64,000 nt of DNA, taken from Clostridiales bacterium. GTDB taxonomy: Bacteria; Bacillota; Clostridia; Christensenellales; Aristaeellaceae. The notes below the pieces were generated by a model. That model was not told where the DNA came from. It did not search any database and saw only the letters and a program-made list of their open reading frames with translations. Shown piece by piece: positions 5,464 to 59,051 of this stretch. How positions within the stretch are numbered: the stretch's first letter is position 1; every line of letters begins with the position of its first letter. The stretch lies in contig SFHK01000012.1 of the NCBI GenBank assembly GCA_004556395.1, positions 5,299 through 69,298 on the forward strand, in the 5' to 3' direction. A program made the translations under genes and the position numbers.

Positions 5464-7542
5464 TTATGCCTGCTTTTCAATCTGCTCGCGATAACCGTCC
5501 AGCTCGCGCTCGTTGCCGTACACGAAATGGTCGGGCAGAATCTCGCACCACGTGGGCTTATCCACGCTGTAATCGTGCACGCTCGGGTCGTACACCAGCA
5601 GCTTCTTCTCGCGCTCCAGATACGGATTCGGATTGGGCACGGCGGAAAGCAGCGCCTGCGTGTAGGGATGCAGCGGATGCCGGAACAGCTCCTCGGCCTC
5701 GGCCAGCTCCACGATGCGTCCCTTGTGGATGACGGCGATGCGGTCGGAAATGAAGCGCACAACCGACAGATCGTGGGCGATGAACAGATAGGTAAGCCCC
5801 CTGTTCTTCTTGAGGTCGTTGAGCAGGTTCAGCACCTGTGCGCGGATGGATACGTCCAGCGCCGAGATCGGCTCGTCGGCCACGATGAACTCCGGACGCA
5901 TGATCAGGCTGCGCGCGATGCCGATGCGCTGACGCTGACCGCCCGAGAATTCGTGCGGGAAGCGGCTGGAGAACTCCGGCAGCAAACCGACCTCTTCCAG
6001 CGCCTTCTTCACCTGCTCCTGCCTGTCCTTCTGATCCTTGTACAGGTGGTGGTTGTACAGACCCTCGGAGATGATGTAGTCCACCTTCGCGCGCTCGTTC
6101 AGCGACGCCATCGGATCCTGGAAGATCATCTGGCACTTGCGGATGACGTTCAGATCCTGCTCCTTGGAAATTTTTCCGCTGATTCGCTCGCCGCGATATA
6201 GCACTTCGCCCGCCGTAATCGGATTGATGCGCACGATCGCGCGGCCGATCGTCGTTTTGCCGGAGCCGGACTCGCCGACCAGCGAGAACGTTTCGCCCTT
6301 GTAGATCGTGAAATTCACGTCATCCACGGCGACGAACTTCTTACGTCCCGCGCCGAAGGTGACCTGAAGGTTCTTCACCTCCACCAGCGGCTCGCGGTTC
6401 GGGTCGCGATGCGGATGCGCGATGCCCTCCGCACAGTCGGGATTCTTCGCGTTCGCGCTCATCTTGCGAATGCTGTCCGGCTGCTCAAGCTTGGGCGCGC
6501 GCGGGTCGAGCATCCACGTCTTTGCCTGATGCGTAGGCGTTACGTCGAACATCGGCGGCTCCTCAAGGAAGTCGATGTTCAGCGCCTTGCGGTTTCTGGG
6601 CGCGAACGAGTCGCCGACCACGCGGTTGAACAGGTTCGGCGGCGTTCCGTCGATGGCAGGCAGCTTTTCGCCCTTTACGCCCAGCTGCGGCAGCGCCGAC
6701 AAAAGCGCCCATGTATAGGGATGACGCGGGTCGAAGAAGATTTCCTGCACCATGCCGATCTCGATAATCTGCCCCGCGTACATGACCGCCACGCGGTCGG
6801 CCACGTTGGCGACGACGCCCAGATCGTGCGTGATGTAGATGATCGTCATGTGCTTTTCCCGCTGCAACTTGCGGATGAGCTCCAGAATCTGCGCCTGAAT
6901 TGTCACGTCCAGCGCCGTCGTGGGCTCATCGCAGATCAGAATCTGCGGGTTGCACGCCACGGCAATGGCGATCACGACGCGCTGACGCATGCCGCCGGAA
7001 AACTCGTGCGGGTACTGGTTGTAGCGCTTAGCGGGCTCCGGAATGCCGACCAGATCGAGAAGGCGAATCGCCTCAGCCTTGGCCTCGCGGCCGTGCAGGT
7101 TCTGGTTCAGCTCGATGGCCTCGCGAATCTGCGCGCCGATTTTCCTCAGCGGGTTCAGGCTCGTCATCGGGTCCTGCGTGACCATGGCAATCTTCTTGCC
7201 GCGGATGGTGCGCCACTGCGATTCGGTGGTATACTTGGCCAGATCCTTGCCGTCGTACAGGATGGAGCCGCCGGTCACGGAGCCGTTTTTGTCCAGCATG
7301 CCGACAAACGTCTTTGTGAACACCGACTTGCCCGAGCCGCTCTCGCCCACGATGGCCAGCGTCTCGCCGTCATACAGGTCGAGCGAGCAGCGGCGAATGG
7401 CGTTCAGCTTCTGGCCGCGCAGGGTGAACTGCACCTCCAGATCCTTCACGGAGAGAATCGGCTCCGTGCTCAGCACCTGCTGCGCGCGCTTTTTGAATTC
7501 CTGATCCAGAGAGGCGTTCTGAATGCTTCTGCTTTCTGCCAT
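5464..7542 (-). CDS. peptide/nickel-type ABC transporter ATP-binding protein, fused double ATPase (OppD-OppF-like)
   Basis: Two complete ABC domains in one chain: Walker A GESGSGKS twice, signatures FSGGMRQR and [11 protein letters not shown] 7540-7542 lies 7 nt after GGGAGGGG. The track start is a TTG two codons upstream. Confidence 0.9.
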
Positions 7543-48090: not shown

Positions 48091-48969
48091 TCATTTATTC
48101 CAGAAGTTCGGCGCGAACTCGCCGCCGCGGCACCATTTCAGGTAGCTGAGCGCATGCATCTGGCCGGTGCACTCCCAGTCGCCGCTGAACAGCGGGTCGT
48201 GATAACCCTCGATGCTGACGCAGCCCTTATAGCCCGCCATTTGCAGGATGGTGAAAATCTGCCGCCAGTCCGTATCGCCAAGGCCGGGGAAACGGGAAAT
48301 AATCGCGTGATTCCTGCCCATGAAGCCCTCGGACGCAAGCACGTCGCGGTTCACCGTCGCGTCCTTGCCGTGCACATGGAACACCTTGCCCGCGTATCTG
48401 CGCAGGTTCGCGATCGGGTCGATCAGCTGCGCGATCTGATGCGCGGGCTCCCATTCGAGTCCCAGCGCGTCCGACGGCACCGCGTCAAACATCATGTCCC
48501 ACGCGCGCGGGTTAAAGCCGATGTTGCAGGTGTTGTTCCTCCACGTGCCGCCCATCGGACAGTTCTCAATGGCGATGCGCACGCCCCTGTCCTCGGCGCG
48601 GCGCGCCAGCTCCCCGAACACCTCTTTGAAGCGCGGCATGGCCTCGTCCACCGACTTGCCCTCATACGCGCCCGCGAAGGTCGATACCGTGTCCGTGCCG
48701 AAATCGCGCGCCGCGTCGATGCACTCGCACAGCGTGTCAAAGTGGCTCTGCTGCTCCAGCGCGTTGCAATAAAAGCCCAGCGCGGAGATCTTCACGTTCT
48801 TTTCCTCGCTGAACGCCTTTACGCGCGGCGCCATCTCGCGCAGGTTCGCGTCCTTCAGCGTCATATGGAAGTTCACCGTGAAGCACTCAAAGCCCTTCCC
48901 GGCCAGCGGCGGCGCCCAGTCAAAAAACAAGTTTCCGGGAATGCAGGTTCCGACGGCAATCTGATTCAT
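48091..48969 (-). CDS. sugar phosphate isomerase/epimerase (xylose isomerase-like TIM barrel)
   Basis: Start at M18 (MNQIAVGTCIPGN, GGAGGGAG RBS). Typical AP_endonuc_2 family blocks (RIAIENCP, HVHGKD, VSIEGYHD). Confidence 0.8.
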   Translation of the reverse strand: MNQIAVGTCIPGNLFFDWAPPLAGKGFECFTVNFHMTLKDANLREMAPRVKAFSEEKNVKISALGFYCNALEQQSHFDTLCECIDAARDFGTDTVSTFAGAYEGKSVDEAMPRFKEVFGELARRAEDRGVRIAIENCPMGGTWRNNTCNIGFNPRAWDMMFDAVPSDALGLEWEPAHQIAQLIDPIANLRRYAGKVFHVHGKDATVNRDVLASEGFMGRNHAIISRFPGLGDTDWRQIFTILQMAGYKGCVSIEGYHDPLFSGDWECTGQMHALSYLKWCRGGEFAPNFWNK

Positions 48970-49048
48970 GATCTGTTTTCTCCCTCCGGACATATCTCTG
49001 TATGAAAGCAGCCGCCGCACCGGTTCGGAACGACGGCCGCATATTGGA

Positions 49049-50470
49049 TTAGTGGAGCACCGAAACGGCGTCGGCGATCGTCTTTTCGAGCGCCTCGCGA
49101 CCGTACTTGTCGACCTCCGCTTTGTTCTTCTCGCCGTGGGTCAGGCAGCCCGCGCCGCCGATGCAGCCGCCGACGCACGCCATACCCTCGACGAAATTGG
49201 CGTCGAGCACGTTTTTGCTCATCTTCAGAAGCGCCATGCGGCAGGCTTCAATGCCGTCGCACGAGCAGGCCTTCAGTTCAAAATCGATGTTCTGCTCCTT
49301 CAGACCCTCGGCCACCGCGTCCGCCAGACCGCCGCAGCGGGCGAAGATGCGGCCATAGTAGGACGCGTTGTCCAGCACGCCCTCTTCCAGCGTGGTAATG
49401 TCCAGATCGCGGCTGTCAAACAGCGCCTGCAGCTCTTCGAACGTCATGACCGCGTCGATATACGGGCGCACGGTATCCAGCTGCGCTTCCATCTTCTTCG
49501 CCGTGCACGGGCCGATGAACACGATCTTGGCGTTGTCCGTCGTTTCCTTTATATACTTGGCCAGCGTCGCCATCGGAGACAGGTTGCTGGAGATATACGG
49601 CACGAGCTTCGGGAACGCCTGCTGGATATACCTGACGAACGCCGGGCAGCAGGAGCTCGTGAGCCTGCCCTTTTCGGCCAGCTCGCGCGATTCCTTCTGC
49701 GCGACCATATCCGCGCCGAGCGCCGCCTCCACGACCGTGTGGAAGCCCAGCTCCTTGAGGCCGGTGATGACCTGCCCGAGCTTGGCATAGGTGAACTGAC
49801 TGGAAATGGACGGCGCGACCAGCGCGTACAGCTTGTAGTTCGCGCCGCAGTTGCTTTCCTTGATCAGCCTGATCACGTCCAGAATGAAGCTCTTGTCCAC
49901 AATCGCACCGAACGGGCACTGATACACGCACGCGCCGCAGGAGGTGCACTTGTCGTTGTCGATCACGGCGGCCTTGTTCTCGTTCACGGCGATAGCCTTG
50001 ACCTTGCAGGCGTTCTGACAGGGGCGAATGCGGTTGACGATGGCCGTGTACGGGCACACCTTCGCGCACGCGCCGCACTCCACGCACTTGGTCTTGTCGA
50101 TGTGCGCCACGTGCATATGGTCGAAAGAAATCGCCCCGCGGCGGCATACGTCTTCGCAGCGATGCGCCAGACAGCCTCGGCAGGCGTTCGTCACTTCGTA
50201 GCCGCCCACCGGACATTCATCACAGGCAATGTCGATGACCTCGATCACGTTGGGGTTCTCGCTCGACCCGCCCATGGCCATGCGCACGCGCTCGGCAAGA
50301 ATGGCGCGCTCCTTATACACGCAGCAGCGCATCGTCGGCGTGGTGCCGGGTACGATGGTATACGGGATTCGGGTGATGTTCTCAATCAGCTTATCGTCCC
50401 ATGCCAGCCGCGCCACTTCCCTAAGAACCTTGTATTTCAGATGCTGTACCTTGGTATCAAACTTGCGCAT
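49049..50470 (-). CDS. [FeFe] hydrogenase, catalytic-type (Cys-rich N-terminus plus 2x[4Fe-4S] plus H-domain; group B-like, HfsD/HydA2-like)
   Basis: H-cluster motifs L1 LTSSCCPAF, L2 IGPCTAKKME, L3 VEGMACVGGCIGGAG. Upstream are ferredoxin-type CxxCxxCxxxCP motifs. Confidence 0.85.
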   Translation of the reverse strand: MRKFDTKVQHLKYKVLREVARLAWDDKLIENITRIPYTIVPGTTPTMRCCVYKERAILAERVRMAMGGSSENPNVIEVIDIACDECPVGGYEVTNACRGCLAHRCEDVCRRGAISFDHMHVAHIDKTKCVECGACAKVCPYTAIVNRIRPCQNACKVKAIAVNENKAAVIDNDKCTSCGACVYQCPFGAIVDKSFILDVIRLIKESNCGANYKLYALVAPSISSQFTYAKLGQVITGLKELGFHTVVEAALGADMVAQKESRELAEKGRLTSSCCPAFVRYIQQAFPKLVPYISSNLSPMATLAKYIKETTDNAKIVFIGPCTAKKMEAQLDTVRPYIDAVMTFEELQALFDSRDLDITTLEEGVLDNASYYGRIFARCGGLADAVAEGLKEQNIDFELKACSCDGIEACRMALLKMSKNVLDANFVEGMACVGGCIGGAGCLTHGEKNKAEVDKYGREALEKTIADAVSVLH

Positions 50471-50485
50471 GGAAGCGTGCCTCCT

Positions 50486-51658
50486 CTAAAAGTAACTGAC
50501 CTTGATTCGCTTGCCCATCTTCCTCAGACACTCGGAAAGCTCCTTTACAAGGTTCATCTTGATGCTGAAGTTGATCGGCAGATCCGGGTTCTGGTGCGCC
50601 GGGTTAATGGCGCGTCCCACGAAGAAATTGATGTCCGTCGCCTCTTCAAACAGCAGGCGGCTGATCAGCGACGCGCCGTCGCGCTTCAGCGACCAGTGGG
50701 CGTAGCTTTCGTTGTCCTTCAGGTAGTCCTTCGCGTTTTCGAGCACCTTGTTGATCGTGATCACGCCCTCCGTGACCAGATCGACGCCCTCGATCTCCGC
50801 AATCGGCGGCACGTCGGATTCCTCGAAATTCAGCGTGGGGCGCAAAGGCTTGCCCAGATACTTCGCCGCGATAGTGGACGTGGTGCCGCCGCACACGATG
50901 TGCTTGCCCTCCTTGGAGAAGAACAGGCTCATCATGCGGTCGTTGTCGTCTCGGCTCGCCGGCGGGCCGAACAGGATGTTCATCGGCTCGCGCTTGCGGA
51001 TGCGCACGACACACGCCGTCGCATCGTCGCCGGGCTTATGGCCGTACAGCTTGTCGCATTCATCCACCAGAATCGTGGACAGCGTTTTCGCCGTATACCC
51101 CGCCGGAGCGATCGACTCCATGAAGGAGATAATGTCCTCGCGCTGCCAGCCGAAGTTGTACGCCACGCCGATGCCGGCGTGCGGGCAGCCGTCGGACATG
51201 GCGACGAAGATGTCGTTTTCCTTCAGCGTGACGACGGATTTGAAAATCTGCTTCCCGCCGATGGTCGTTTCCGTCTTGGGATAATCGTAGTTGGCGAAGT
51301 CGCGAATCAGAATCACGTGCGGATTGTCATACTGAATGATCTCCGCGCGCTCGTTGTTGATGATATGAATGATGGTGAACGTGGAATACGCCACGCCGCG
51401 CACGGAGCACACGGGCAGCGTGGCGGCGATGGTGCCGACGCAGTCCTCCAGCGAAAGCCCCTCCGCCATCATCGTGGAGATGATGGTGGAGGTCAGCGTG
51501 GACAGAATCGACGCCTTTACGCCGCTTCCCAGTCCGTCCGCCAGCACGACGATCACGGAGCTGTCGTTCTGCTCCACGATGTCCACATGGTCGCCGCACA
51601 GCTGCTCGCCGTAATGGTTCACGCTTTTGTAGCCGATATCCGCGCACAGATTATTCAT
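50486..51658 (-). CDS. PP2C/SpoIIE-family protein phosphatase (HfsC-like)
   Basis: GEQLCGDHVDIVEQNDSSVIVVLADGLGSGVKASILS is the SpoIIE/PP2C metal-binding block. It overlaps the HydS-like stop by 8 nt. Confidence 0.8.
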   Translation of the reverse strand: MNNLCADIGYKSVNHYGEQLCGDHVDIVEQNDSSVIVVLADGLGSGVKASILSTLTSTIISTMMAEGLSLEDCVGTIAATLPVCSVRGVAYSTFTIIHIINNERAEIIQYDNPHVILIRDFANYDYPKTETTIGGKQIFKSVVTLKENDIFVAMSDGCPHAGIGVAYNFGWQREDIISFMESIAPAGYTAKTLSTILVDECDKLYGHKPGDDATACVVRIRKREPMNILFGPPASRDDNDRMMSLFFSKEGKHIVCGGTTSTIAAKYLGKPLRPTLNFEESDVPPIAEIEGVDLVTEGVITINKVLENAKDYLKDNESYAHWSLKRDGASLISRLLFEEATDINFFVGRAINPAHQNPDLPINFSIKMNLVKELSECLRKMGKRIKVSYF

Positions 51659-53336
51659 TTGTGATCGACTCCTTCAGCTTCGTAAGCGCGATCTTGGTTT
51701 CCGCCGCGGTCTCGCCCAGCAGGGACGCGATTTCCTGAACGATGCGCATCTGCTTGTCGACGACCTTGTCGGCGATTTCCACCGTCTGACGGCTGATGCT
51801 TTCCTTCTTCTCGCGCTCGTTCTCCTCGTCGGTCACGTCGCGCATGATGCAGATCAGCAGCTTATACTCGCGGTCAAACAGAATCGTCTGCTCGACGTAG
51901 CGCTTGTATTCCGCCAGATACGTGCGCTGGTCGCGAATGCTGCGGCCGCTGTCGCGCACCTGCATGAAGGGAAGCGGGTCGAGAATGCGAACCACCTGGT
52001 CGCCCAGCACATCGGAGGTACTGCGGATATTCATGATGCGGCGCGCCGCCTGATTGATCTGCTGAACCTCCAGATTCTCGTTGAGCACAATCAGGCCGTT
52101 GGGCGTGTTGTTGACGATGCTGTCGGAAAAGCTTTCCGCCTTTTCCTTCAGATACGGCAGACACATGGCGATTTCGGCCTTGCCCTGATAAATGGCAATC
52201 GCCTTTTCGCGGCAGGTGTTGTAGCCGCAGGAGCCGCAGTTCAGCTCGTCCTCCTTGCGGGTCTTGCCCATCTGGCGCAGGATCGACTGAATCTCCTGCT
52301 CGTCGGGCGTCTTCGTGTGGCGGTCGATGTACTCGAAGCTCTTGTGAATCGCCATCTCCTCCGGCTGATCGACGTCAAAATCCTCGCTGCCGGCGTAGTT
52401 CACGATGGCCATATAATCCTGAACCGGCGCGCGATGGTATTTCTCCATGACCGGGCCGCCGATGCAGGAGCCGACGCACGCGGACATTTCGATGAAGCTG
52501 TGGTGCACCTTGCCGCTTTCAATGTCCTTCAGCGCGGCGATGCAGTTCTCCACGCCGTCCAGCGCCATATAGCGGTAGCCGGGCGCGTCCTGCTTCATGG
52601 TCTTGAGAATGCCGCCGGTCGTCGGGAAGAAGCGCGCGCGGCTCTTTTCGCTGGCCACACGGTGCTGACCGATCGAAATGTTCTTTTCTCTCAGCCACTC
52701 GGTAAGCTCCTCGAACGTAAGCACCGCGTCCACGATGTCCTTGTACTTCTGCGCCTCGTCCTTCTTGGCCACGCAGGGGCCGATGAACACCGTCTTGCAG
52801 CCCGGGTAACGCTTTTTCAGATCCAGACAGTGCGCCTGCATCGGGGAAACGACGTCGGCCAGATACGGCAAAAGCTGCGGGTAATACTTCTGAATCAGCA
52901 GGTTGATCGAATGGCAGCAGGAGGAAATCACGACGTCCCTGTCGCCTCTTTCGAGCATGTTTTCATACTCGGTTTTTACGATCGTCGCGCCGACGGCGGT
53001 CTCCTCCGCGCCGGCGAAGCCCAGCGCCTTCAGCGCCGCGTCCATATCCTCGATGCCGCAGTCGTCATAGTTGGCGGCGAAGGAGGGCGCCAGCGAAACG
53101 TATACCGGCTCCCTGCCCTGCAGAAGCACCTTCACGCGCTCGGTGTCGTTGACAATTTCCTTCGCGTTCTGCGGGCATACCACAAAGCAGTGGCCGCACA
53201 GGATGCACTCGTCGCCGATGATATGCGCCTGATTGCCGGAGAAGCGGATGGACTTCACCGGGCAATGCCGGATGCACTTGTAGCAGTTCTTGCAGTTGGA
53301 TTTCTTGAGCATCAAACAATCGGACACGCCTATCAT
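51651..53336 (-). CDS. sensory-type [FeFe] hydrogenase homologue with C-terminal PAS domain (HydS / HfsB-like, group C)
   Basis: N-terminal 2x[4Fe-4S]. The H-domain has altered motifs ISSCCHS, IGPCVAKKDE, EMSACVGSCIGGP. An extra CGSCGYNTC cluster and a PAS-like domain (NTPNGLIVLNENLEVQQINQAARRIM) follow. The exact start is uncertain (53336, GTG 53327 or ATG 53312). Confidence 0.85.
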   Translation of the reverse strand: MIGVSDCLMLKKSNCKNCYKCIRHCPVKSIRFSGNQAHIIGDECILCGHCFVVCPQNAKEIVNDTERVKVLLQGREPVYVSLAPSFAANYDDCGIEDMDAALKALGFAGAEETAVGATIVKTEYENMLERGDRDVVISSCCHSINLLIQKYYPQLLPYLADVVSPMQAHCLDLKKRYPGCKTVFIGPCVAKKDEAQKYKDIVDAVLTFEELTEWLREKNISIGQHRVASEKSRARFFPTTGGILKTMKQDAPGYRYMALDGVENCIAALKDIESGKVHHSFIEMSACVGSCIGGPVMEKYHRAPVQDYMAIVNYAGSEDFDVDQPEEMAIHKSFEYIDRHTKTPDEQEIQSILRQMGKTRKEDELNCGSCGYNTCREKAIAIYQGKAEIAMCLPYLKEKAESFSDSIVNNTPNGLIVLNENLEVQQINQAARRIMNIRSTSDVLGDQVVRILDPLPFMQVRDSGRSIRDQRTYLAEYKRYVEQTILFDREYKLLICIMRDVTDEENEREKKESISRQTVEIADKVVDKQMRIVQEIASLLGETAAETKIALTKLKESITNE

Positions 53337-53340
53337 TCCT

Positions 53341-53589
53341 TTACTTCAGTTTCGCCAGCACCTTTTCCTGGAAGAAGTCGCGAAAGCCTTCCTTGGTGAC
53401 GCCCGGGTAAACGTCGTCGTCTACGGTGATGGTGACGCCGTTGCGATTGCATCGGCCGGTGCAGAAGCTCCCTGCCAGCGTCACGTCTCTCTCCAGATGG
53501 TTATCCTCAATGGCCTTTTTCAGAAGGCCTACGATATCCATCGAGCCCTTCAGGTGACAGGAGCTGCCAACGCACACCTGGATGATCAT
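53341..53589 (-). CDS. thioredoxin-like [2Fe-2S] ferredoxin
   Basis: 82 aa. VCVGSSCHLKGS ... FCTGRCNRNG four-Cys pattern. Confidence 0.8.
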   Translation of the reverse strand: MIIQVCVGSSCHLKGSMDIVGLLKKAIEDNHLERDVTLAGSFCTGRCNRNGVTITVDDDVYPGVTKEGFRDFFQEKVLAKLK

Positions 53590-53831
53590 TATTTCACCTT
53601 CTCAAGCACGTTCTCTTTGAAAAACTCGTCCACGGTGTCGGGCGAGACGGAATAAATCTCGTCGCCGATCGCCACGCAGACGCCCTGCTGGCACTTGCCC
53701 ATGCAGAAGGTGCCGCCCAGCTCCACCTTGTCGGAAACGTTGTTCTCGGCAATCAGCTTCTGAAGCGAAGCGACGACCAGGCGGGAACCTTTCAGGTGAC
53801 AGGAGCTGCCGATGCAAACCGTGATTTTCAT
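53589..53831 (-). CDS. thioredoxin-like [2Fe-2S] ferredoxin (paralogue)
   Basis: Start at M7 (MKITVCIGSSCHLKGS; GAAGGAGG RBS). FCMGKCQQG second Cys pair. 1-nt overlap with the next gene. Confidence 0.8.
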   Translation of the reverse strand: MKITVCIGSSCHLKGSRLVVASLQKLIAENNVSDKVELGGTFCMGKCQQGVCVAIGDEIYSVSPDTVDEFFKENVLEKVK

Positions 53832-53845
53832 GAGAAGAACCTCCT

Positions 53846-54583
53846 TCATATGTTTCGCGGGGAAAAGATCTTTGGTATCAGAAACGCTCGTTCACGTTCG
53901 TTCGCCATCATGGTGCGCGACGCCGCGACCAGCGGCGTCCACTGCGCAATTTCCCGGGGATCGCTGTCCAGCCGCGAGCGATAGGCGTTCGCCATTTCCG
54001 CACTCTCCTCCATCTCAAGCAGAAGAAGCGTCACCGCGTCGTCCGCCGCGGCCCGCCCACGGCAGGCGCGCGCCCAGTCCACCACGGCAAAGCCGTCGTC
54101 CGCGCATTCGATCACGTTGGAAAGCATCAGATCGCCATGGCAGGGAGACGCGCCGTCCGGCATGCGCGACGTGCGCGCGATCAGCTCCGCCTTCGCGTCC
54201 TCCGCCAGCGGCGCGCGCGCGATCAGGCGCGATACGCGGCTTTTCAGCGACTCGAGGCCGTTGAGCTTGGAGGCGTGAATCTGCGTGCGCACCTGCGCCA
54301 GCGTTCGAATCGCGCTGTCCCGCTCCTCCGGGTGCCTGCGCACGCGGTCGGAAAGCGTGCGGCCGTATATGAACCGGGAGGCAATCGCCCAGCCGTCCGG
54401 CACGCGCTCGGCCGCCAGCACCTCCGGCACCGGCAGACCCGCGTCCCGCGCCGCCGCCTGATTGGCCGCTTCGCGCAGAACGTCCGCCGCCGCGACGCGG
54501 CCGGTAAAGACCTTGATGCACGTATCCCCATCCTGGTAAACGGTCTTATTGTTTCGAACCGCGATGACCCTGTCGAGATTCAT
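53846..54583 (-). CDS. phosphotransferase-family protein (APH/choline-kinase/protein-kinase-like fold)
   Basis: 245 aa. Brenner-type catalytic loop CHGDLMLSNVI and VVDWARACRG (DxD/DFG-equivalent). Start ATG 54581-54583 after AGGTGA. Confidence 0.7.
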   Translation of the reverse strand: MNLDRVIAVRNNKTVYQDGDTCIKVFTGRVAAADVLREAANQAAARDAGLPVPEVLAAERVPDGWAIASRFIYGRTLSDRVRRHPEERDSAIRTLAQVRTQIHASKLNGLESLKSRVSRLIARAPLAEDAKAELIARTSRMPDGASPCHGDLMLSNVIECADDGFAVVDWARACRGRAAADDAVTLLLLEMEESAEMANAYRSRLDSDPREIAQWTPLVAASRTMMANERERAFLIPKIFSPRNI

Positions 54584-54605
54584 GCACACTCACCTTTCGG
54601 CGCGC

Positions 54606-54619
54606 AGTCGTATACGACT
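54606..54619. promoter_or_regulatory. perfect 14-bp palindrome at the predicted transcription start of the hydrogenase operon (candidate operator)
   Basis: AGTCGTA|TACGACT, 4-17 nt downstream of the -10 hexamer on the minus strand. Confidence 0.35.
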
Positions 54620-54622
54620 CTA

Positions 54623-54651
54623 ATTGTATCGCCATACGCCCGCCCGCGCAA
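54623..54651 (-). promoter_or_regulatory. sigma-70-type promoter of the kinase-Fd-Fd-hydS-PP2C-hydA operon
   Basis: Minus strand TTGCGC, 17 nt, TACAAT. Confidence 0.5.
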
Positions 54652-54670
54652 GTACATCTTTGATATATTG

Positions 54671-55612
54671 TCATTGCTCTTTGCGATATGCCCTGAACAC
54701 CTCGCGCCGCACGTCGCAAAGCTCGGTCAGGAAGCGCTTTTCCATGTCCGTCAGCTTGAGGTCACGCCGGTAGAACAGCTCGTCCCGATACACGGTGCGC
54801 GCGAAAGCCACCGTGCGCTGCTCAAGCCCATAGCGGGAAAGCGTGCGCGGCGTGAGCGGCGCCGTCCACACATAGCTCTGCGGCTGCACGGAAAGAATTT
54901 CCAGCCGCGCCGCGCGCGACGGCGTGAGCACCCGGCGGAAATCGCCGTCCGGATACTGCTCGCGCCGAACCTCCTCGGGCGCCATCGACGGCACGTCGAA
55001 ATCGCCGGGCGCGACCTCGATCAGCGTTTTGAGTTCGTCCTCCGTCACCGGGTCGGCCGACGCGAGCGGGCTGTCCTTTGAATAGGCCAGCACCGGCGTA
55101 AACTCGACGATGCGCTCGTGAAACAACCCGCCTGCCTCCATCTGCTGCCGGAAGCGCGGGAAATAGTTGCCCGTGCAACGCGCGATGCCGATTCGGCACT
55201 CGCCCTCGGCGACGGCGCGAATGGCCGCCGCCGCGCCCGTCTCGCGGTAGTCCAGCTCCGCGGGATCGGCCGTCAGCGCGTTCAGCGTGTTCAGAAACGC
55301 CTCCGCCACATAGCAGGACGGCGGAACGCAGGCCGAGAAGCGCTGCTTCACCTGCGTTTCCTCGCGGTAGAACGCTTCCATCTCATCGATTTCACCGAGG
55401 ATTCTGCGCGCGCGCTCCAGAAAGACCTCGCCCTCCGAGGTAGGCACCATGCCGCGCGCCGTGCGTTCAAACAGGGTAATGCCCAGCGTCCCCTCGAGAT
55501 CCCGGATGGCTCGGCTCAGGTTGGGCTGGTTCATATATAATGTCTCCGACGCCCGGCTGATGGAGCCGGCTCTGGCCACCTCCACAGCATAGCGCATATG
55601 CAGGATGTTCAC
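54671..55612 (-). CDS. LysR-family transcriptional regulator
   Basis: GTG 55610-55612 lies 7 nt after GGAGG and gives (M)NILHMRYAVEVARAGSISRASETLYMNQPNLSRAIRDLE, a canonical LysR HTH. The upstream ATGs of the track ORF lie at or before the predicted TSS. Confidence 0.85.
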   Translation of the reverse strand: MNILHMRYAVEVARAGSISRASETLYMNQPNLSRAIRDLEGTLGITLFERTARGMVPTSEGEVFLERARRILGEIDEMEAFYREETQVKQRFSACVPPSCYVAEAFLNTLNALTADPAELDYRETGAAAAIRAVAEGECRIGIARCTGNYFPRFRQQMEAGGLFHERIVEFTPVLAYSKDSPLASADPVTEDELKTLIEVAPGDFDVPSMAPEEVRREQYPDGDFRRVLTPSRAARLEILSVQPQSYVWTAPLTPRTLSRYGLEQRTVAFARTVYRDELFYRRDLKLTDMEKRFLTELCDVRREVFRAYRKEQ

Positions 55613-55891: not shown

Positions 55892-56866
55892 ATGGCCGTC
55901 AACAAAATCACCGTGATCGGTGCCGGCAGCGTGGGTTCCACGACCGCGTTTGCGCTTGCTCTCAAGAACATTGCCAACGAGATCGTCATCATCGACATCA
56001 ACGAAGACAAGGCGCTGGGCGAAGCCATGGATATTCATCAGGGCACGCCCCTGTTCAGCGAGCCGGTCAACGTTTACGCCGGCGACTACAAGTCCGCCGT
56101 GGGCAGCGACATCGTCGTCATCACCTCCGGCGTGGCCCGCAAGCCCGGCCAGACGCGCATCGACCTTGCGCAGACCAACGTAAACATCATCAAGCAGATT
56201 ACCCCCCAGATCGTCCGCTCCTGCCCGGACGCGACCTACGTCATCGTCGCCAACCCGGTGGACATTCTGACCTACGTTTTCAGCAAGGTTTCCGGCATTC
56301 CGCAGAACCGCATCATCGGCTCCGGCACGCTGCTGGACACCGCGCGTCTGCGCGCCCGCATCGCCGAGTATCTGTCCGTTTCCCAGAAGAACGTGCACGC
56401 CTACGTTTTCGGCGAGCACGGCGAGACCAGCTTCGTGCCGTGGTCGATCGCCGAGGTTTCCACGATCAGCCTTGCCGACTATAAGGAACTGATCAAGCTC
56501 GATCAGGGCATCATGGTCGACCTCGACTACGACGAGATCGACAACTATATGCGCTCCTCCGGCGGCAAGATCATCCGCCGCAAGGGCTGCACCAACTACG
56601 CCATCGCCGTGTCCGTGTGCGGCATCTGCGAATGCCTGCAGGGCGGCGTGAACGCGGTCGTCACCGTTTCCACGATGCTGAGCGGCGAATACGGCATTTC
56701 CGACGTGTGCCTGTCCCTGCCGATGCTGCTGGGCAACGGAAAGGTTCAGGGCCGCATCACGCCCCGCCTGACGGACGAGGAGCTCGAGAAGCTGCACCAC
56801 AGCGCCGACGCGCTGAAGGCCGTCATCGCGCAGATCGACCTCACGATGCCCGAGACGAAGGCATAA
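55892..56866 (+). CDS. L-2-hydroxyacid dehydrogenase of the LDH/MDH family (LDH-like scaffold with Arg at the substrate-selectivity position; predicted malate dehydrogenase)
   Basis: NKITVIGAGSVGSTTAFAL Rossmann start, SGVARKPGQTRIDL loop (Arg where LDHs carry Gln), IGSGTLLDTARLR, GEHGETSFVPWS. Confidence 0.75.
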   Translation: MAVNKITVIGAGSVGSTTAFALALKNIANEIVIIDINEDKALGEAMDIHQGTPLFSEPVNVYAGDYKSAVGSDIVVITSGVARKPGQTRIDLAQTNVNIIKQITPQIVRSCPDATYVIVANPVDILTYVFSKVSGIPQNRIIGSGTLLDTARLRARIAEYLSVSQKNVHAYVFGEHGETSFVPWSIAEVSTISLADYKELIKLDQGIMVDLDYDEIDNYMRSSGGKIIRRKGCTNYAIAVSVCGICECLQGGVNAVVTVSTMLSGEYGISDVCLSLPMLLGNGKVQGRITPRLTDEELEKLHHSADALKAVIAQIDLTMPETKA

Positions 56867-56879
56867 GGGAGGCCAAAGC

Positions 56880-58244
56880 ATGAATTATCGCATTGAGCGG
56901 GATTCCATGGGCGAGATGCAGGTGCCCGCGGATCGCTACTGGGGCGCGCAGACGCAGCGCAGCTTCCAGAACTTCAAAATCGGCGGCGAGATCATGCCGC
57001 GCGAAATCACCCACGCCTTCGGCATTCTGAAGAAGGCCGCGGCAATTGCCAACCATGAATTCGGCAAGCTGGACGACCGCCGTCTGGACGTGATCAGCCG
57101 CGCCTGCGACGAGGTGATTTCCGGTTCCCTGAACGACCACTTCCCGCTGGTCGTATGGCAGACCGGCAGCGGCACGCAGTCCAACATGAACGCCAACGAG
57201 GTCATTGCCAACCGCGGCAACGAAATCGCGGGCGAAAAGCTTCTGCATCCCAACGATCACGTGAACATGTCCCAGAGCTCGAACGACACCTTCCCCACCG
57301 CCATGCACATCGCCGCGGTTACGATCATCCGCGAAAAACTGCTGCCGGCGATGGATGGCCTGATTGAAACGTTCAAGCGGCTGGAGGCCGAGAACGAGGG
57401 CATCGTGAAGACGGGCCGCACGCATCTGCAGGATGCGACGCCCATCCGCTTCTCTCAGGAAATCTCCGGCTGGCGCAACATGATCGAAAAGACGCGCGCG
57501 ATGATCGAAGCCGCGCTTCCGGGCATCAGCGAGCTGGCGCTGGGCGGCACCGCCGTCGGCACCGGCCTCAACTGCCCCAGGGAGTTCGGCCCCGTGGTCG
57601 CCCGCGTTGTAAGCGAGCTGACCGGCTATCCCTTCACCAGCGCCGCCAACAAGTTCCACGCGCTGACCAGCAAGGACGATCTGGTGTTCATGCACGGCGC
57701 GCTGAAGGCGCTGGCCGCGAACCTGATGAAGATTGCCAACGACGTGCGCTGGCTGGCAAGCGGCCCGCGCGACGGTCTGGGCGAAATCTTCATTCCGGAA
57801 AACGAGCCCGGCTCCTCCATCATGCCCGGCAAGGTAAATCCCACCCAGTGCGAAAGCCTGACGATGGTCGCCGTTCAGGTCATGGCCAACGACGTGGCCG
57901 TGGGCATGGCGGCCAGCCAGGGCAACTTCGAGCTGAACGTGTTCATGCCGGTTCTGATTTACAACTTCCTGCAGTCCGCGCGCCTGCTGGCCGACGGCAT
58001 CAATTCCTTCAATAAGAATTGCGTCTCCGGCATTCGCGCCAACCGCGAAAAGATGCACCACAACCTGTATAACTCCCTGATGCTGGTCACGGCGCTCAAT
58101 CCGTACATCGGCTACGACAACGCCGCCAAGACCGCCAAGAAGGCCTACAAGGAGAACATCTCCCTGAAGGAAGCGTGCGTGCAGCTCGGCTTCCTGACCG
58201 CGGAGCGGTTTGACGAGGTCTTTAACCCCGAGAACATGGCATAA
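56880..58244 (+). CDS. fumC: class II fumarate hydratase
   Basis: 454 aa. GSSIMPGKVNPTQCE signature of the fumarase/aspartase family and the FumC-type N-terminus MNYRIERDSMGEMQVPADRYWGAQTQRS. Confidence 0.92.
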   Translation: MNYRIERDSMGEMQVPADRYWGAQTQRSFQNFKIGGEIMPREITHAFGILKKAAAIANHEFGKLDDRRLDVISRACDEVISGSLNDHFPLVVWQTGSGTQSNMNANEVIANRGNEIAGEKLLHPNDHVNMSQSSNDTFPTAMHIAAVTIIREKLLPAMDGLIETFKRLEAENEGIVKTGRTHLQDATPIRFSQEISGWRNMIEKTRAMIEAALPGISELALGGTAVGTGLNCPREFGPVVARVVSELTGYPFTSAANKFHALTSKDDLVFMHGALKALAANLMKIANDVRWLASGPRDGLGEIFIPENEPGSSIMPGKVNPTQCESLTMVAVQVMANDVAVGMAASQGNFELNVFMPVLIYNFLQSARLLADGINSFNKNCVSGIRANREKMHHNLYNSLMLVTALNPYIGYDNAAKTAKKAYKENISLKEACVQLGFLTAERFDEVFNPENMA

Positions 58245-58256
58245 GGAGACGGCTCT

Positions 58257-59051
58257 ATGAAATTCAGTTACTTTCCCGGCTGTACGCTGAAAACCAAGGC
58301 GCGCGACCTCGATAAATGGGGACGCGAAAGCGCTTTGAAGCTGGGCGTAGAGCTGCGCGAAATCGAGGAGTGGCAGTGCTGCGGCGCGGTGTACCCGCAG
58401 GTGGAGGATGAAATCGCCTCCCGCCTGTCCTCCGTGCGCGCGCTGATGGACGCGCGAGCGCATGGAGAGGATCTGCTGACGCTCTGCTCCGCCTGTCACC
58501 ATGTGATCAAGCGCATGAACCACGACATGAAGGAAAACGAGTACGTGCGCACCCGCGTGAACAACTATCTGAAGCCCGACGTTCCCTACGCGGGCGAGAC
58601 GAAGGTGGTTCACTACCTCGAGATGCTGCGCGACACCGTGGGCTTCGACGAGATCAAAAAGCAGGTTGTGAACCCGCTGAAGGGCCGCAAAATCGGCGCG
58701 TACTACGGCTGCCTGCTGCTTCGCCCCTCCGCCGTGATGGCGTTTGACAATCCCGAGCATCCCACGATCATCGAGGATTTCCTTTCCGCCATCGGCGCGA
58801 CGAGCGTGAAATACGAGTTCCGCAACGAGTGCTGCGGCGGCTACATCGCGCTGGAGGATCGCGCGCAGGCCGCGAAGCAGGTAGAGCGCGTCCTGTCCAG
58901 CGCCGCCGGCCGCGGCTGCGAGGCGCTGGTCACCGCCTGCCCGCTGTGCATGTACAACCTGAAGCAGAACGCGGGCGAGCACGCGCTTCCGGTTTACTAT
59001 TTCACCGAGCTGCTGGCTGAGGCGCTGGGTGTAAAGGAGGAACAGGCATGA
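58257..59051 (+). CDS. hdrB: heterodisulfide reductase subunit B-like protein (two CCG domains)
   Basis: YFPGCTL...WQCCG...LCSACHH and YYGCLL...NECCGG...ACPLCMYN. These are two CCG (Cys-rich) repeats. Confidence 0.85.
   Translation: MKFSYFPGCTLKTKARDLDKWGRESALKLGVELREIEEWQCCGAVYPQVEDEIASRLSSVRALMDARAHGEDLLTLCSACHHVIKRMNHDMKENEYVRTRVNNYLKPDVPYAGETKVVHYLEMLRDTVGFDEIKKQVVNPLKGRKIGAYYGCLLLRPSAVMAFDNPEHPTIIEDFLSAIGATSVKYEFRNECCGGYIALEDRAQAAKQVERVLSSAAGRGCEALVTACPLCMYNLKQNAGEHALPVYYFTELLAEALGVKEEQA

Follow-up and report, generated by a model that had tools for sequence, protein, structure and literature searches.

Putative H2-sensing hydrogenase locus with an APH-fold kinase gene in an uncultured pig-gut bacterium and its relationship to the H2-responsive cluster of Ruminococcus albus

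Organization of the operon

The window analyzed here, that is, the whole stretch of 64,000 nucleotides from contig SFHK01000012.1 of a Clostridiales bacterium, contains a hydrogenase operon headed by a gene for a kinase of the aminoglycoside phosphotransferase (APH) fold. Translation of the window revealed six densely packed open reading frames (ORFs) at 49049-54583 on the minus strand, which encode the kinase, two ferredoxins (Fd1 and Fd2), a hydrogenase homologue (HydS), a PP2C phosphatase and a second hydrogenase (HydA) (Table 1). A preliminary description of the region, made from the letters alone, had listed these genes and their positions, and all of them were present in the translation; the ORF coordinates also gave the same gene junctions, namely 14, -1, 4, -8 and 15 nt. 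Pfam and NCBIfam profile scans of the six operon proteins and of the LysR-family regulator encoded upstream backed the family assignments. The same description had proposed that the kinase and the phosphatase form a pair around an H2 sensor, and this proposal is evaluated below.

The ATG start of the kinase gene is supported by the N-terminal sequence MNLDRVIAVRN, conserved across the family. Within the 87-nt gap between lysR and the kinase gene, the latter is preceded by a good ribosome-binding site. The Fd1 start is preceded by an AGGAGG ribosome-binding site, 8 nt upstream. The two ferredoxins are 45% identical to each other.

Table 1. Genes and predicted signals of the hydrogenase locus (positions refer to the window)
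Feature	Position	Strand	Description
APH-fold kinase gene	53846-54583	minus	245 aa; PF01636, E 1.6e-16
Ferredoxin 1 (Fd1)	53589-53831	minus	thioredoxin-like [2Fe-2S], 80 aa; PF01257, E 7.3e-8
Ferredoxin 2 (Fd2)	53341-53589	minus	thioredoxin-like [2Fe-2S], 82 aa; PF01257, E 3e-8
hydS	51651-53336	minus	561 aa; Fe_hyd_lg_C E 7.9e-50, PF04060 FeS E 3.8e-10
PP2C gene	50486-51658	minus	390 aa; SpoIIE/RsbU-type, PF07228 SpoIIE
hydA	49049-50470	minus	473 aa; TIGR04105 FeFe_hydrog_B1, 567 bits vs. cut-off 450
lysR	54671-55612	minus	LysR-family regulator; PF00126 HTH_1, E 6e-21
Candidate sigma-70 promoter of the six-gene operon	54623-54651	minus	TTGCGC-17-TACAAT, in the 87-nt lysR-kinase gap
Promoter-like site of lysR	55681-55653	minus	TTGAGA-17-TATAAT, 11/12 positions match
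14-bp palindrome AGTCGTATACGACT	54606-54619		follows the candidate -10 box, ahead of the kinase gene's ribosome-binding site
Terminator-like hairpin after hydA	49000-49040 (hairpin and UUUCAU at 49008-49040)	minus	11-bp GC-rich stem

Hydrogenases HydS and HydA

The translation of hydS contains the motifs SSCCH, GPC, EMSAC and CGSCGYNTC, and that of hydA contains SSCCP and EGMACVGGC, so that all motifs named previously were found. The H-cluster motifs of HydA are canonical. Nevertheless, HydA carries GPC as well, and therefore the GPC substitution, which had been counted among the non-canonical features of HydS, is not specific to the sensor. The predicted architecture of HydS includes an N-terminal 2x[4Fe-4S] region, a modified H-cluster domain, a four-Cys FeS domain, a PAS-like domain and a highly conserved C-terminal helix, with sensor-type substitutions of Met to Gly in xPC and Met to Ser in ExMxC. 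The PAS matches were weak (E about 1e-3) and below the gathering threshold.

HydS shares 69.5% identity with Rumal_3405, the HydS of R. albus, which was filed by HydDB as group C3 (Greening et al. 2019, supplement), and can be regarded as a putative H2-sensing group C [FeFe] hydrogenase. HydA was assigned to the group B monomeric [FeFe] hydrogenases as an orthologue of HydA2/HfsD, its TIGR04105 score being above the cut-off. Both assignments agree with the preliminary description, which had combined a group C sensor with a group B enzyme. HydS residues about 516-561 (window 51651-51790) are near-invariant, even in an Acetoanaerobium homologue that is 38% identical overall and whose gene is located in a different gene context. 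This C-terminal segment may be a docking helix for a partner protein.

TmHydS of Thermotoga maritima and TamHydS of Thermoanaerobacter mathranii, which were likened to the window HydS by description, share with it the modified H-cluster environment, the extra Fe-S cluster, the PAS region and the putative sensing function. Both have been characterized as isolated proteins only, and their gene neighborhoods differ from that of the window.

The hfsABCD cluster of Thermoanaerobacterium saccharolyticum (Shaw et al. 2009; Eminoglu et al. 2017) is similar to the window in encoding a small Fe-S protein, the PAS-containing HydS-like HfsB, the PP2C-like HfsC and the HydA2-like HfsD; by its published description it consists of four genes without a kinase gene, whereas the window has one. 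In its original description, this cluster was presented as the principal hydrogenase of T. saccharolyticum, and a 2026 paper still considers HfsABC a possibly functional hydrogenase without HfsD. By analogy, the genes of the window could encode a multisubunit ferredoxin-linked hydrogenase of the Hfs type, with HydS and the ferredoxins serving as subunits for catalysis or electron transfer instead of a sensor, and with the kinase and phosphatase as mere bystanders; the retention of both SSCC cysteines in the window HydS is consistent with this. We consider it improbable, since the sensor-type substitutions, the PAS-like domain and the extra FeS domain of HydS argue against it, as do the very low activity of the group C enzymes characterized so far (2024 review) and the effect of the hfsB deletion in Thermoanaerobacterium, which altered adhE expression and alcohol dehydrogenase activity and raised hydrogenase activity. 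The gene Tsac_0415, located beside adhE of T. saccharolyticum, was considered as a counterpart of the kinase gene and rejected, its function being given as unknown in the paper and its transcription being divergent from adhE.

PP2C phosphatase

Residues 1-225 of the PP2C protein form the phosphatase domain, for which the top Foldseek matches were SpoIIE, the RsbU domain of Rv1364c and RsbX. The metal-binding Asp residues were invariant in all 119 of 119 orthologues. An overlap of 8 nt between the end of hydS and the beginning of the PP2C gene was present in the window, R. albus, Monoglobus and the locus L001, i.e., in all clusters examined, and this conserved overlap suggests that the two proteins are co-translated and form a physical complex.

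In its phosphatase domain, the protein is structurally nearest to members of the SpoIIE-SpoIIAA-SpoIIAB and RsbU-RsbV-RsbW type of partner-switching modules. In these modules, however, a STAS substrate is phosphorylated by a GHKL anti-sigma kinase, and the window operon encodes neither: no match to STAS or HATPase_c was found in the six operon proteins or LysR using Pfam and NCBIfam, and the sole kinase-like gene of the operon has the APH fold.

The C-terminal domain (about 165 aa, residues about 226-390, window 50486-50980) is extremely conserved: its identity over 120 homologues is about 85%, and a CGGTTS motif within it is invariant. No Pfam match to the domain was obtained at E up to 10, and its sequence matches in the PDB were at chance level only. 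The AlphaFold 2 model of this domain had low confidence, with a predicted local distance difference test score (pLDDT) of 42-60 over much of the region. The CGGTTS motif was considered as a phosphosite of the kinase, but it is equally conserved in clusters without the kinase and is therefore uninformative, so this candidate was dropped.

Relationship to the R. albus cluster

A tblastn search of the kinase and HydS against plasmid records led to pRUMAL01 of Ruminococcus albus 7, whose annotation lists LysR, Rex, AdhE, a 'phosphotransferase' of 249 aa, two (2Fe-2S) ferredoxin-domain proteins, a HydS-like protein, a SpoIIE phosphatase and HydA2. The R. albus cluster (Rumal_3399-3407) has the same kinase-Fd-Fd-HydS-PP2C-HydA order as the window, with lysR upstream on the same strand, and shares the hydS/PP2C overlap described above. 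Besides HydS, the identity between the two clusters is 78% for PP2C and 77% for HydA, and the match to the R. albus hydS-hydA2 unit given in the preliminary description was thus extended to a collinear arrangement from the kinase to HydA. LysR is 42% identical (306 aa, no gaps) to RUMAL_RS17345, the LysR of the R. albus cluster, and is, judging by this alignment, its orthologue and a conserved member of the locus. Several differences were also found. The R. albus cluster is carried on a megaplasmid, and its kinase gene Rumal_3402 is located between adhE and the ferredoxin genes, whereas the window has no rex or adhE between lysR and the kinase gene. In addition, the window kinase is only 36% identical to Rumal_3402 and is far more diverged from its R. 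albus counterpart than the rest of the cluster.

Expression of the R. albus genes was measured using RNA-seq by Greening et al. 2019, who reported a 'putative eight-gene cluster' that is 111-fold down when Wolinella removes H2. According to Table S7 of that work, all genes from Rumal_3400 to Rumal_3407 were 90-130-fold lower in co-culture with the H2 consumer: Rex -130, AdhE -121, the ferredoxins -109 and -107, HydS -122, SpoIIE -101, HydA2 -90 and Rumal_3402, listed as an 'aminoglycoside phosphotransferase', -113.8-fold (2042 to 18). As the fold changes are alike across the eight genes, the R. albus kinase gene is co-regulated with the operon at a similar expression level, and not separately expressed. 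The eight-gene unit is switched on while H2 accumulates and is repressed about 100-fold once a partner organism consumes the gas.

The hydS-hydA2 unit of R. albus was reportedly studied by Zheng and co-workers in 2014. In PMC5707799, a proposal of Zheng et al. 2014 is reported that HydS signals to an adjacent Ser/Thr kinase, and the only kinase-like gene in the R. albus cluster is Rumal_3402. The idea of a kinase/phosphatase pair is therefore not new, having been proposed for the orthologous cluster. The literature search returned nothing on a sensory hydrogenase together with SpoIIE, nor on Rumal_3402 by name.

APH-fold kinase

The kinase matched PF01636 with 61 bits against a cut-off of 23.2. 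It retains K24, E38, H149-G-D151, N156 and D169, that is, the Brenner motif HxDxxxxN and the downstream metal-binding Asp, and the K, E, HGD, N and D residues were invariant in 148 of 149 kinase orthologues. The exception is a divergent kinase (23-29% identity, 29% to the R. albus protein) encoded at L091:1091-1777 in a Rex-kinase-Fd-Fd-HydS cluster of a Christensenellaceae metagenome-assembled genome (MAG); in this protein HGD is changed to HGK and about 20 residues ahead of the motif are deleted, and it may be a pseudokinase. The sequence upstream of it was too short to judge the adhE context.

The kinase family is large. A profile search over 1.84 billion representative proteins gave 501 clusters with E <= 1e-30 and 3002 with E <= 1e-10, and the length was about 245-255 aa in almost every case. 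The window kinase shares only 36-41% identity with the bulk of the family, and homologues at about 40% identity occupy the same gene cluster. The ratio of nonsynonymous to synonymous substitution rates (dN/dS) of the kinase gene against its L013 orthologue was 0.125, compared with 0.02-0.09 for the other five operon genes and lysR, and its GC content at third codon positions (GC3) was 0.81, like that of the neighboring genes. The low dN/dS indicates purifying selection on the kinase gene. From the kept catalytic residues, the dN/dS value and the matching GC3, we conclude that the kinase is a native, fast-evolving and, as far as its sequence indicates, functional orthologue of Rumal_3402.

The AlphaFold 2 model of the kinase had a pLDDT of 91. 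The nearest solved structures were APH(3')-Ia/IIa/IIb, APH(4)-Ia, capreomycin phosphotransferase (Cph), LicA and B. subtilis YtaA, with a template modeling (TM) score of about 0.66 and 15-20% identity, and the best sequence matches in the PDB were the choline kinase LicA (5.6e-8), hygromycin kinase and Bud32. No match to PF00069 (Hanks-type Ser/Thr kinases) was found in the Pfam scan. The scores of the kinase were far below the cut-offs of the curated NCBIfam models, namely 25 vs. 205 for APH(3'), 21 vs. 325 for APH(6) and 28 vs. 299 for ThiK. Hence, no clear specificity for antibiotics emerged, in accordance with the placement of the kinase in the hydrogenase system, and the protein is of the APH/choline kinase (ChoK) type, being neither a recognizable resistance enzyme nor a Hanks-type protein kinase.

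The name of the Pfam family and the APH(3') enzymes among the top structural matches could also point to a gene for resistance to aminoglycosides or other antibiotics that adjoins the operon by chance. This possibility seems to us extremely improbable: in addition to the low APH(3') and APH(6) scores, the identity to solved APHs is just 16-20%, the synteny is kept over more than 100 loci, the codon usage is native and the R. albus orthologue is co-regulated by H2.

Gene neighborhoods of hydS and the kinase gene

Two samples of loci were compared. In the first, one genome per species was scanned with the HydS alignment, and the best 80 matches (HydS 71-94% identical) were annotated by blastp and hmmsearch against the window and R. 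albus proteins. A locus was considered informative if the sequence ahead of its first ferredoxin gene extended for at least 900 bp, which was the case for 69 loci. In 57 of these 69 loci, the kinase gene immediately preceded the ferredoxin genes, so the conservation of the kinase beside hydS, on which the earlier proposal depended, was observed in relatives. The upstream order was LysR-Rex-AdhE-kinase in 20 of the 57, LysR-AdhE-kinase in 11, LysR-kinase, which is the window form, in 5 and Rex-kinase in 2. A LysR gene was present upstream in most related loci. The nearest genome in the species collection was L013, an uncultured Oscillospiraceae MAG (HydS 94%); the contig of the window itself recurs in a metagenome as L093.

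The second sample was centered on the kinase and comprised metagenome contigs with a closer kinase set, i.e., 79 loci beyond the window's own contig, in 53 of which both flanks could be resolved. An upstream adhE and a downstream Fd-HydS cluster were found in 38 of the 53, the hydS cluster without adhE in 4, an adhE-kinase pair that lacked ferredoxin, hydS, PP2C and hydA genes over the following 6 kb or so in 11, and a kinase without both neighbors in none. The kinase gene therefore adjoins adhE in 49/53 loci and hydS in 42/53, that is, it tracks adhE at least as closely as hydS/PP2C. In neither sample was adhE ever located directly before the ferredoxin genes; the kinase gene lay between them in 42/42 HydS-centered loci. 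The adhE-kinase pairs were found in L102, L111, L119, L124, L125, L132, L138, L145, L148, L156 and L163, with the kinase gene at about 6001-6750 in most, and their kinases are 60-72% identical to the R. albus protein. As the kinase occurs in these pairs without the hydS cluster, it forms a module with adhE that is independent of the H2 sensor.

The kinases flanked by both adhE and hydS are 52-81% identical to the R. albus protein (median 74%). Where the upstream region could be resolved, the most diverged kinases of all were those of the window and L013 (36%), L025 (49%) and L023 (50%), all without adjacent adhE. A tblastn search revealed no AdhE or Rex homologues across the window.

These neighborhoods allow for an explanation in which the kinase belongs to adhE and not to HydS-PP2C: its substrate would be AdhE or a metabolite of the ethanol branch, without involvement of PP2C, and the window copy would be a leftover after the loss of adhE, possibly retargeted. 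The sensor-free pairs, the absence of kinases without either neighbor, the constant presence of the kinase between adhE and the ferredoxin genes and the position of the most diverged kinases in clusters without adjacent adhE all favor it, and so do the small-molecule kinases among the nearest structures and the best PDB match, LicA. On the other hand, the window kinase is not decaying despite the absence of adhE from the window, as its catalytic residues and dN/dS indicate, and the kinase and PP2C genes share one operon in about 80% of loci. Four other kinases without adjacent adhE are still 65-73% identical to the R. albus protein. Moreover, we know of no metabolite kinase required for AdhE function. 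This explanation is possible, but we regard it as rather unlikely.

Transcription signals and other features of the locus

A single promoter for the six genes had been assumed. The sigma-70-like site upstream of the kinase gene and the terminator scan, which gave no terminator-like site on the operon strand between the six genes, agree with it; however, lysR is located upstream on the same strand and metatranscriptome contigs span from lysR into hydS, which leaves the single promoter plausible only. Pig-gut metatranscriptome contigs from two runs cover lysR, the kinase gene, the ferredoxin genes and hydS (52219-55021 and 53224-55473), which shows operon expression and is compatible with one transcript. 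The RNA and DNA runs containing the window sequence were mostly from pig gut. The start of lysR is probably the GTG at 55612.

The palindrome AGTCGTATACGACT is perfect in the window and has one mismatch in L008 and two in L013, which are loci of the same or a near species. Its significance is therefore doubtful, and it was dropped as a candidate operator.

The hairpin 3' of hydA (RNA fold of -31.2 kcal/mol, z = -2.4) probably marks the end of the operon; it was missed by the consensus terminator scan because its U tract is short. The intergenic region downstream of hydA was polymorphic at 49026-49064 in three pig-gut metatranscriptomes. The variants are located within or beside the hairpin: one nucleotide is deleted at 49026, TAC is inserted after 49039, and several positions are substituted.

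Two long ORFs are located on the plus strand antisense to the operon, at 48968-51664 (898 aa) and 52317-53399 (360 aa). They lack family support and are of the spurious kind expected at 60% GC. Divergently from lysR, the plus strand at 55892-59051 carries genes for a member of the L-lactate/malate dehydrogenase family, a class II fumarase and a CCG-domain protein, the Pfam calls being taken from the collinear locus L008. This run may be another redox-balancing unit. More Fe-S proteins are encoded beyond it, at 59-63 kb.

Discussion

The locus of this uncultured pig-gut bacterium is orthologous to the H2-responsive cluster of R. albus and has a reduced form without rex and adhE. We consider it on balance probable that it represents a sensor-PP2C output with the kinase as an accessory arm. 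The two [2Fe-2S] ferredoxins would feed or poise HydS, which would report the H2 or redox state via its PAS-like and C-terminal regions to the co-translated PP2C. The phosphatase would then alter the phosphorylation of some protein target, and this output would set the expression or activity of the ferredoxin-dependent HydA and, where present, AdhE. The altered adhE expression upon hfsB deletion in Thermoanaerobacterium speaks for this explanation. The APH-fold enzyme is predicted to have phosphotransferase activity, and within the system it is an accessory that is conserved but can be absent. Most likely, it is the kinase arm, whose target would belong to the ethanol/H2 branch, the candidates being AdhE itself and a regulator; PP2C may reverse the phosphorylation made by the kinase. 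In the window, where adhE would have been lost from the locus, the kinase has strongly diverged but stays under selection. A similar logic is known for HoxBC-HoxJ-HoxA of Ralstonia eutropha, where H2 is sensed by a hydrogenase of low activity and a kinase coupled to this sensor controls the expression of hydrogenase; however, those proteins are unrelated and comprise a histidine kinase and a response regulator, in contrast to the Ser/Thr-type phosphatase and kinase candidates in the window.

A number of observations weigh against this explanation, and above all against a role of the kinase as the partner of PP2C. The kinase is missing from 12 of the 69 informative hydS-PP2C clusters and from the hydS-PP2C cluster of Monoglobus (HydS 55% identical), and in the eleven adhE-kinase pairs it occurs without hydS or PP2C. 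Since each is found without the other, the kinase and PP2C are separable modules and not an obligate pair. Since adhE is absent from the window, the kinase could act on AdhE only if that protein is encoded outside it. The choice between a protein kinase and a small-molecule kinase, which the preliminary description had left to structure searches, did not fall to the former: the kinase is structurally nearest to small-molecule kinases (APH(3'), choline kinase), and its model has no activation segment, with about 8 residues from D169 to the next helix. The fold lends no support to a protein substrate, and the label 'protein kinase' is therefore an assumption; protein-kinase activity does exist within this fold class, in YihE/SrkA and the CotS family. 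How group C hydrogenases transduce their signal is stated to be unknown in the 2024 review. In two further metatranscriptome runs, the depth over the kinase gene was below that over hydS, and the metatranscriptome evidence as a whole consists of assembled contigs with assembler depth, for which DNA carry-over is possible. Thus, of the proposed kinase/phosphatase pair around the H2 sensor, the conservation and co-regulation of the kinase stood, while the pair is not obligate, adhE is the tighter partner of the kinase, and the fold resembles that of small-molecule kinases.

A more specific and speculative version, which we hold to be unlikely, is that a single phosphoprotein of the ethanol/H2 branch is modified in opposite directions by the APH-fold kinase and by the PP2C coupled to HydS, so that H2 partial pressure would set fermentation routing post-translationally. 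AdhE would be the first candidate for this protein, with LysR, HydA and the PP2C C-terminal domain as alternatives, and in the lineage of the window, which has no adhE in this locus, the kinase would have acquired a new target. If true, this would be a eukaryote-like kinase/PP2C switch read by an [FeFe] hydrogenase.

The window brings nothing categorically new, as the same kinase gene is present in the studied R. albus cluster. The lead it gives is comparative: the kinase gene is found in about 80% of close hydS clusters, always when adhE is there, and also in adhE pairs without the sensor, and this linkage makes AdhE the first candidate phospho-target. Group C 'sensory' [FeFe] hydrogenase systems appear to decide between ethanol and extra H2 in gut and rumen Clostridia, a decision that bears on methane emission and biofuel yields.

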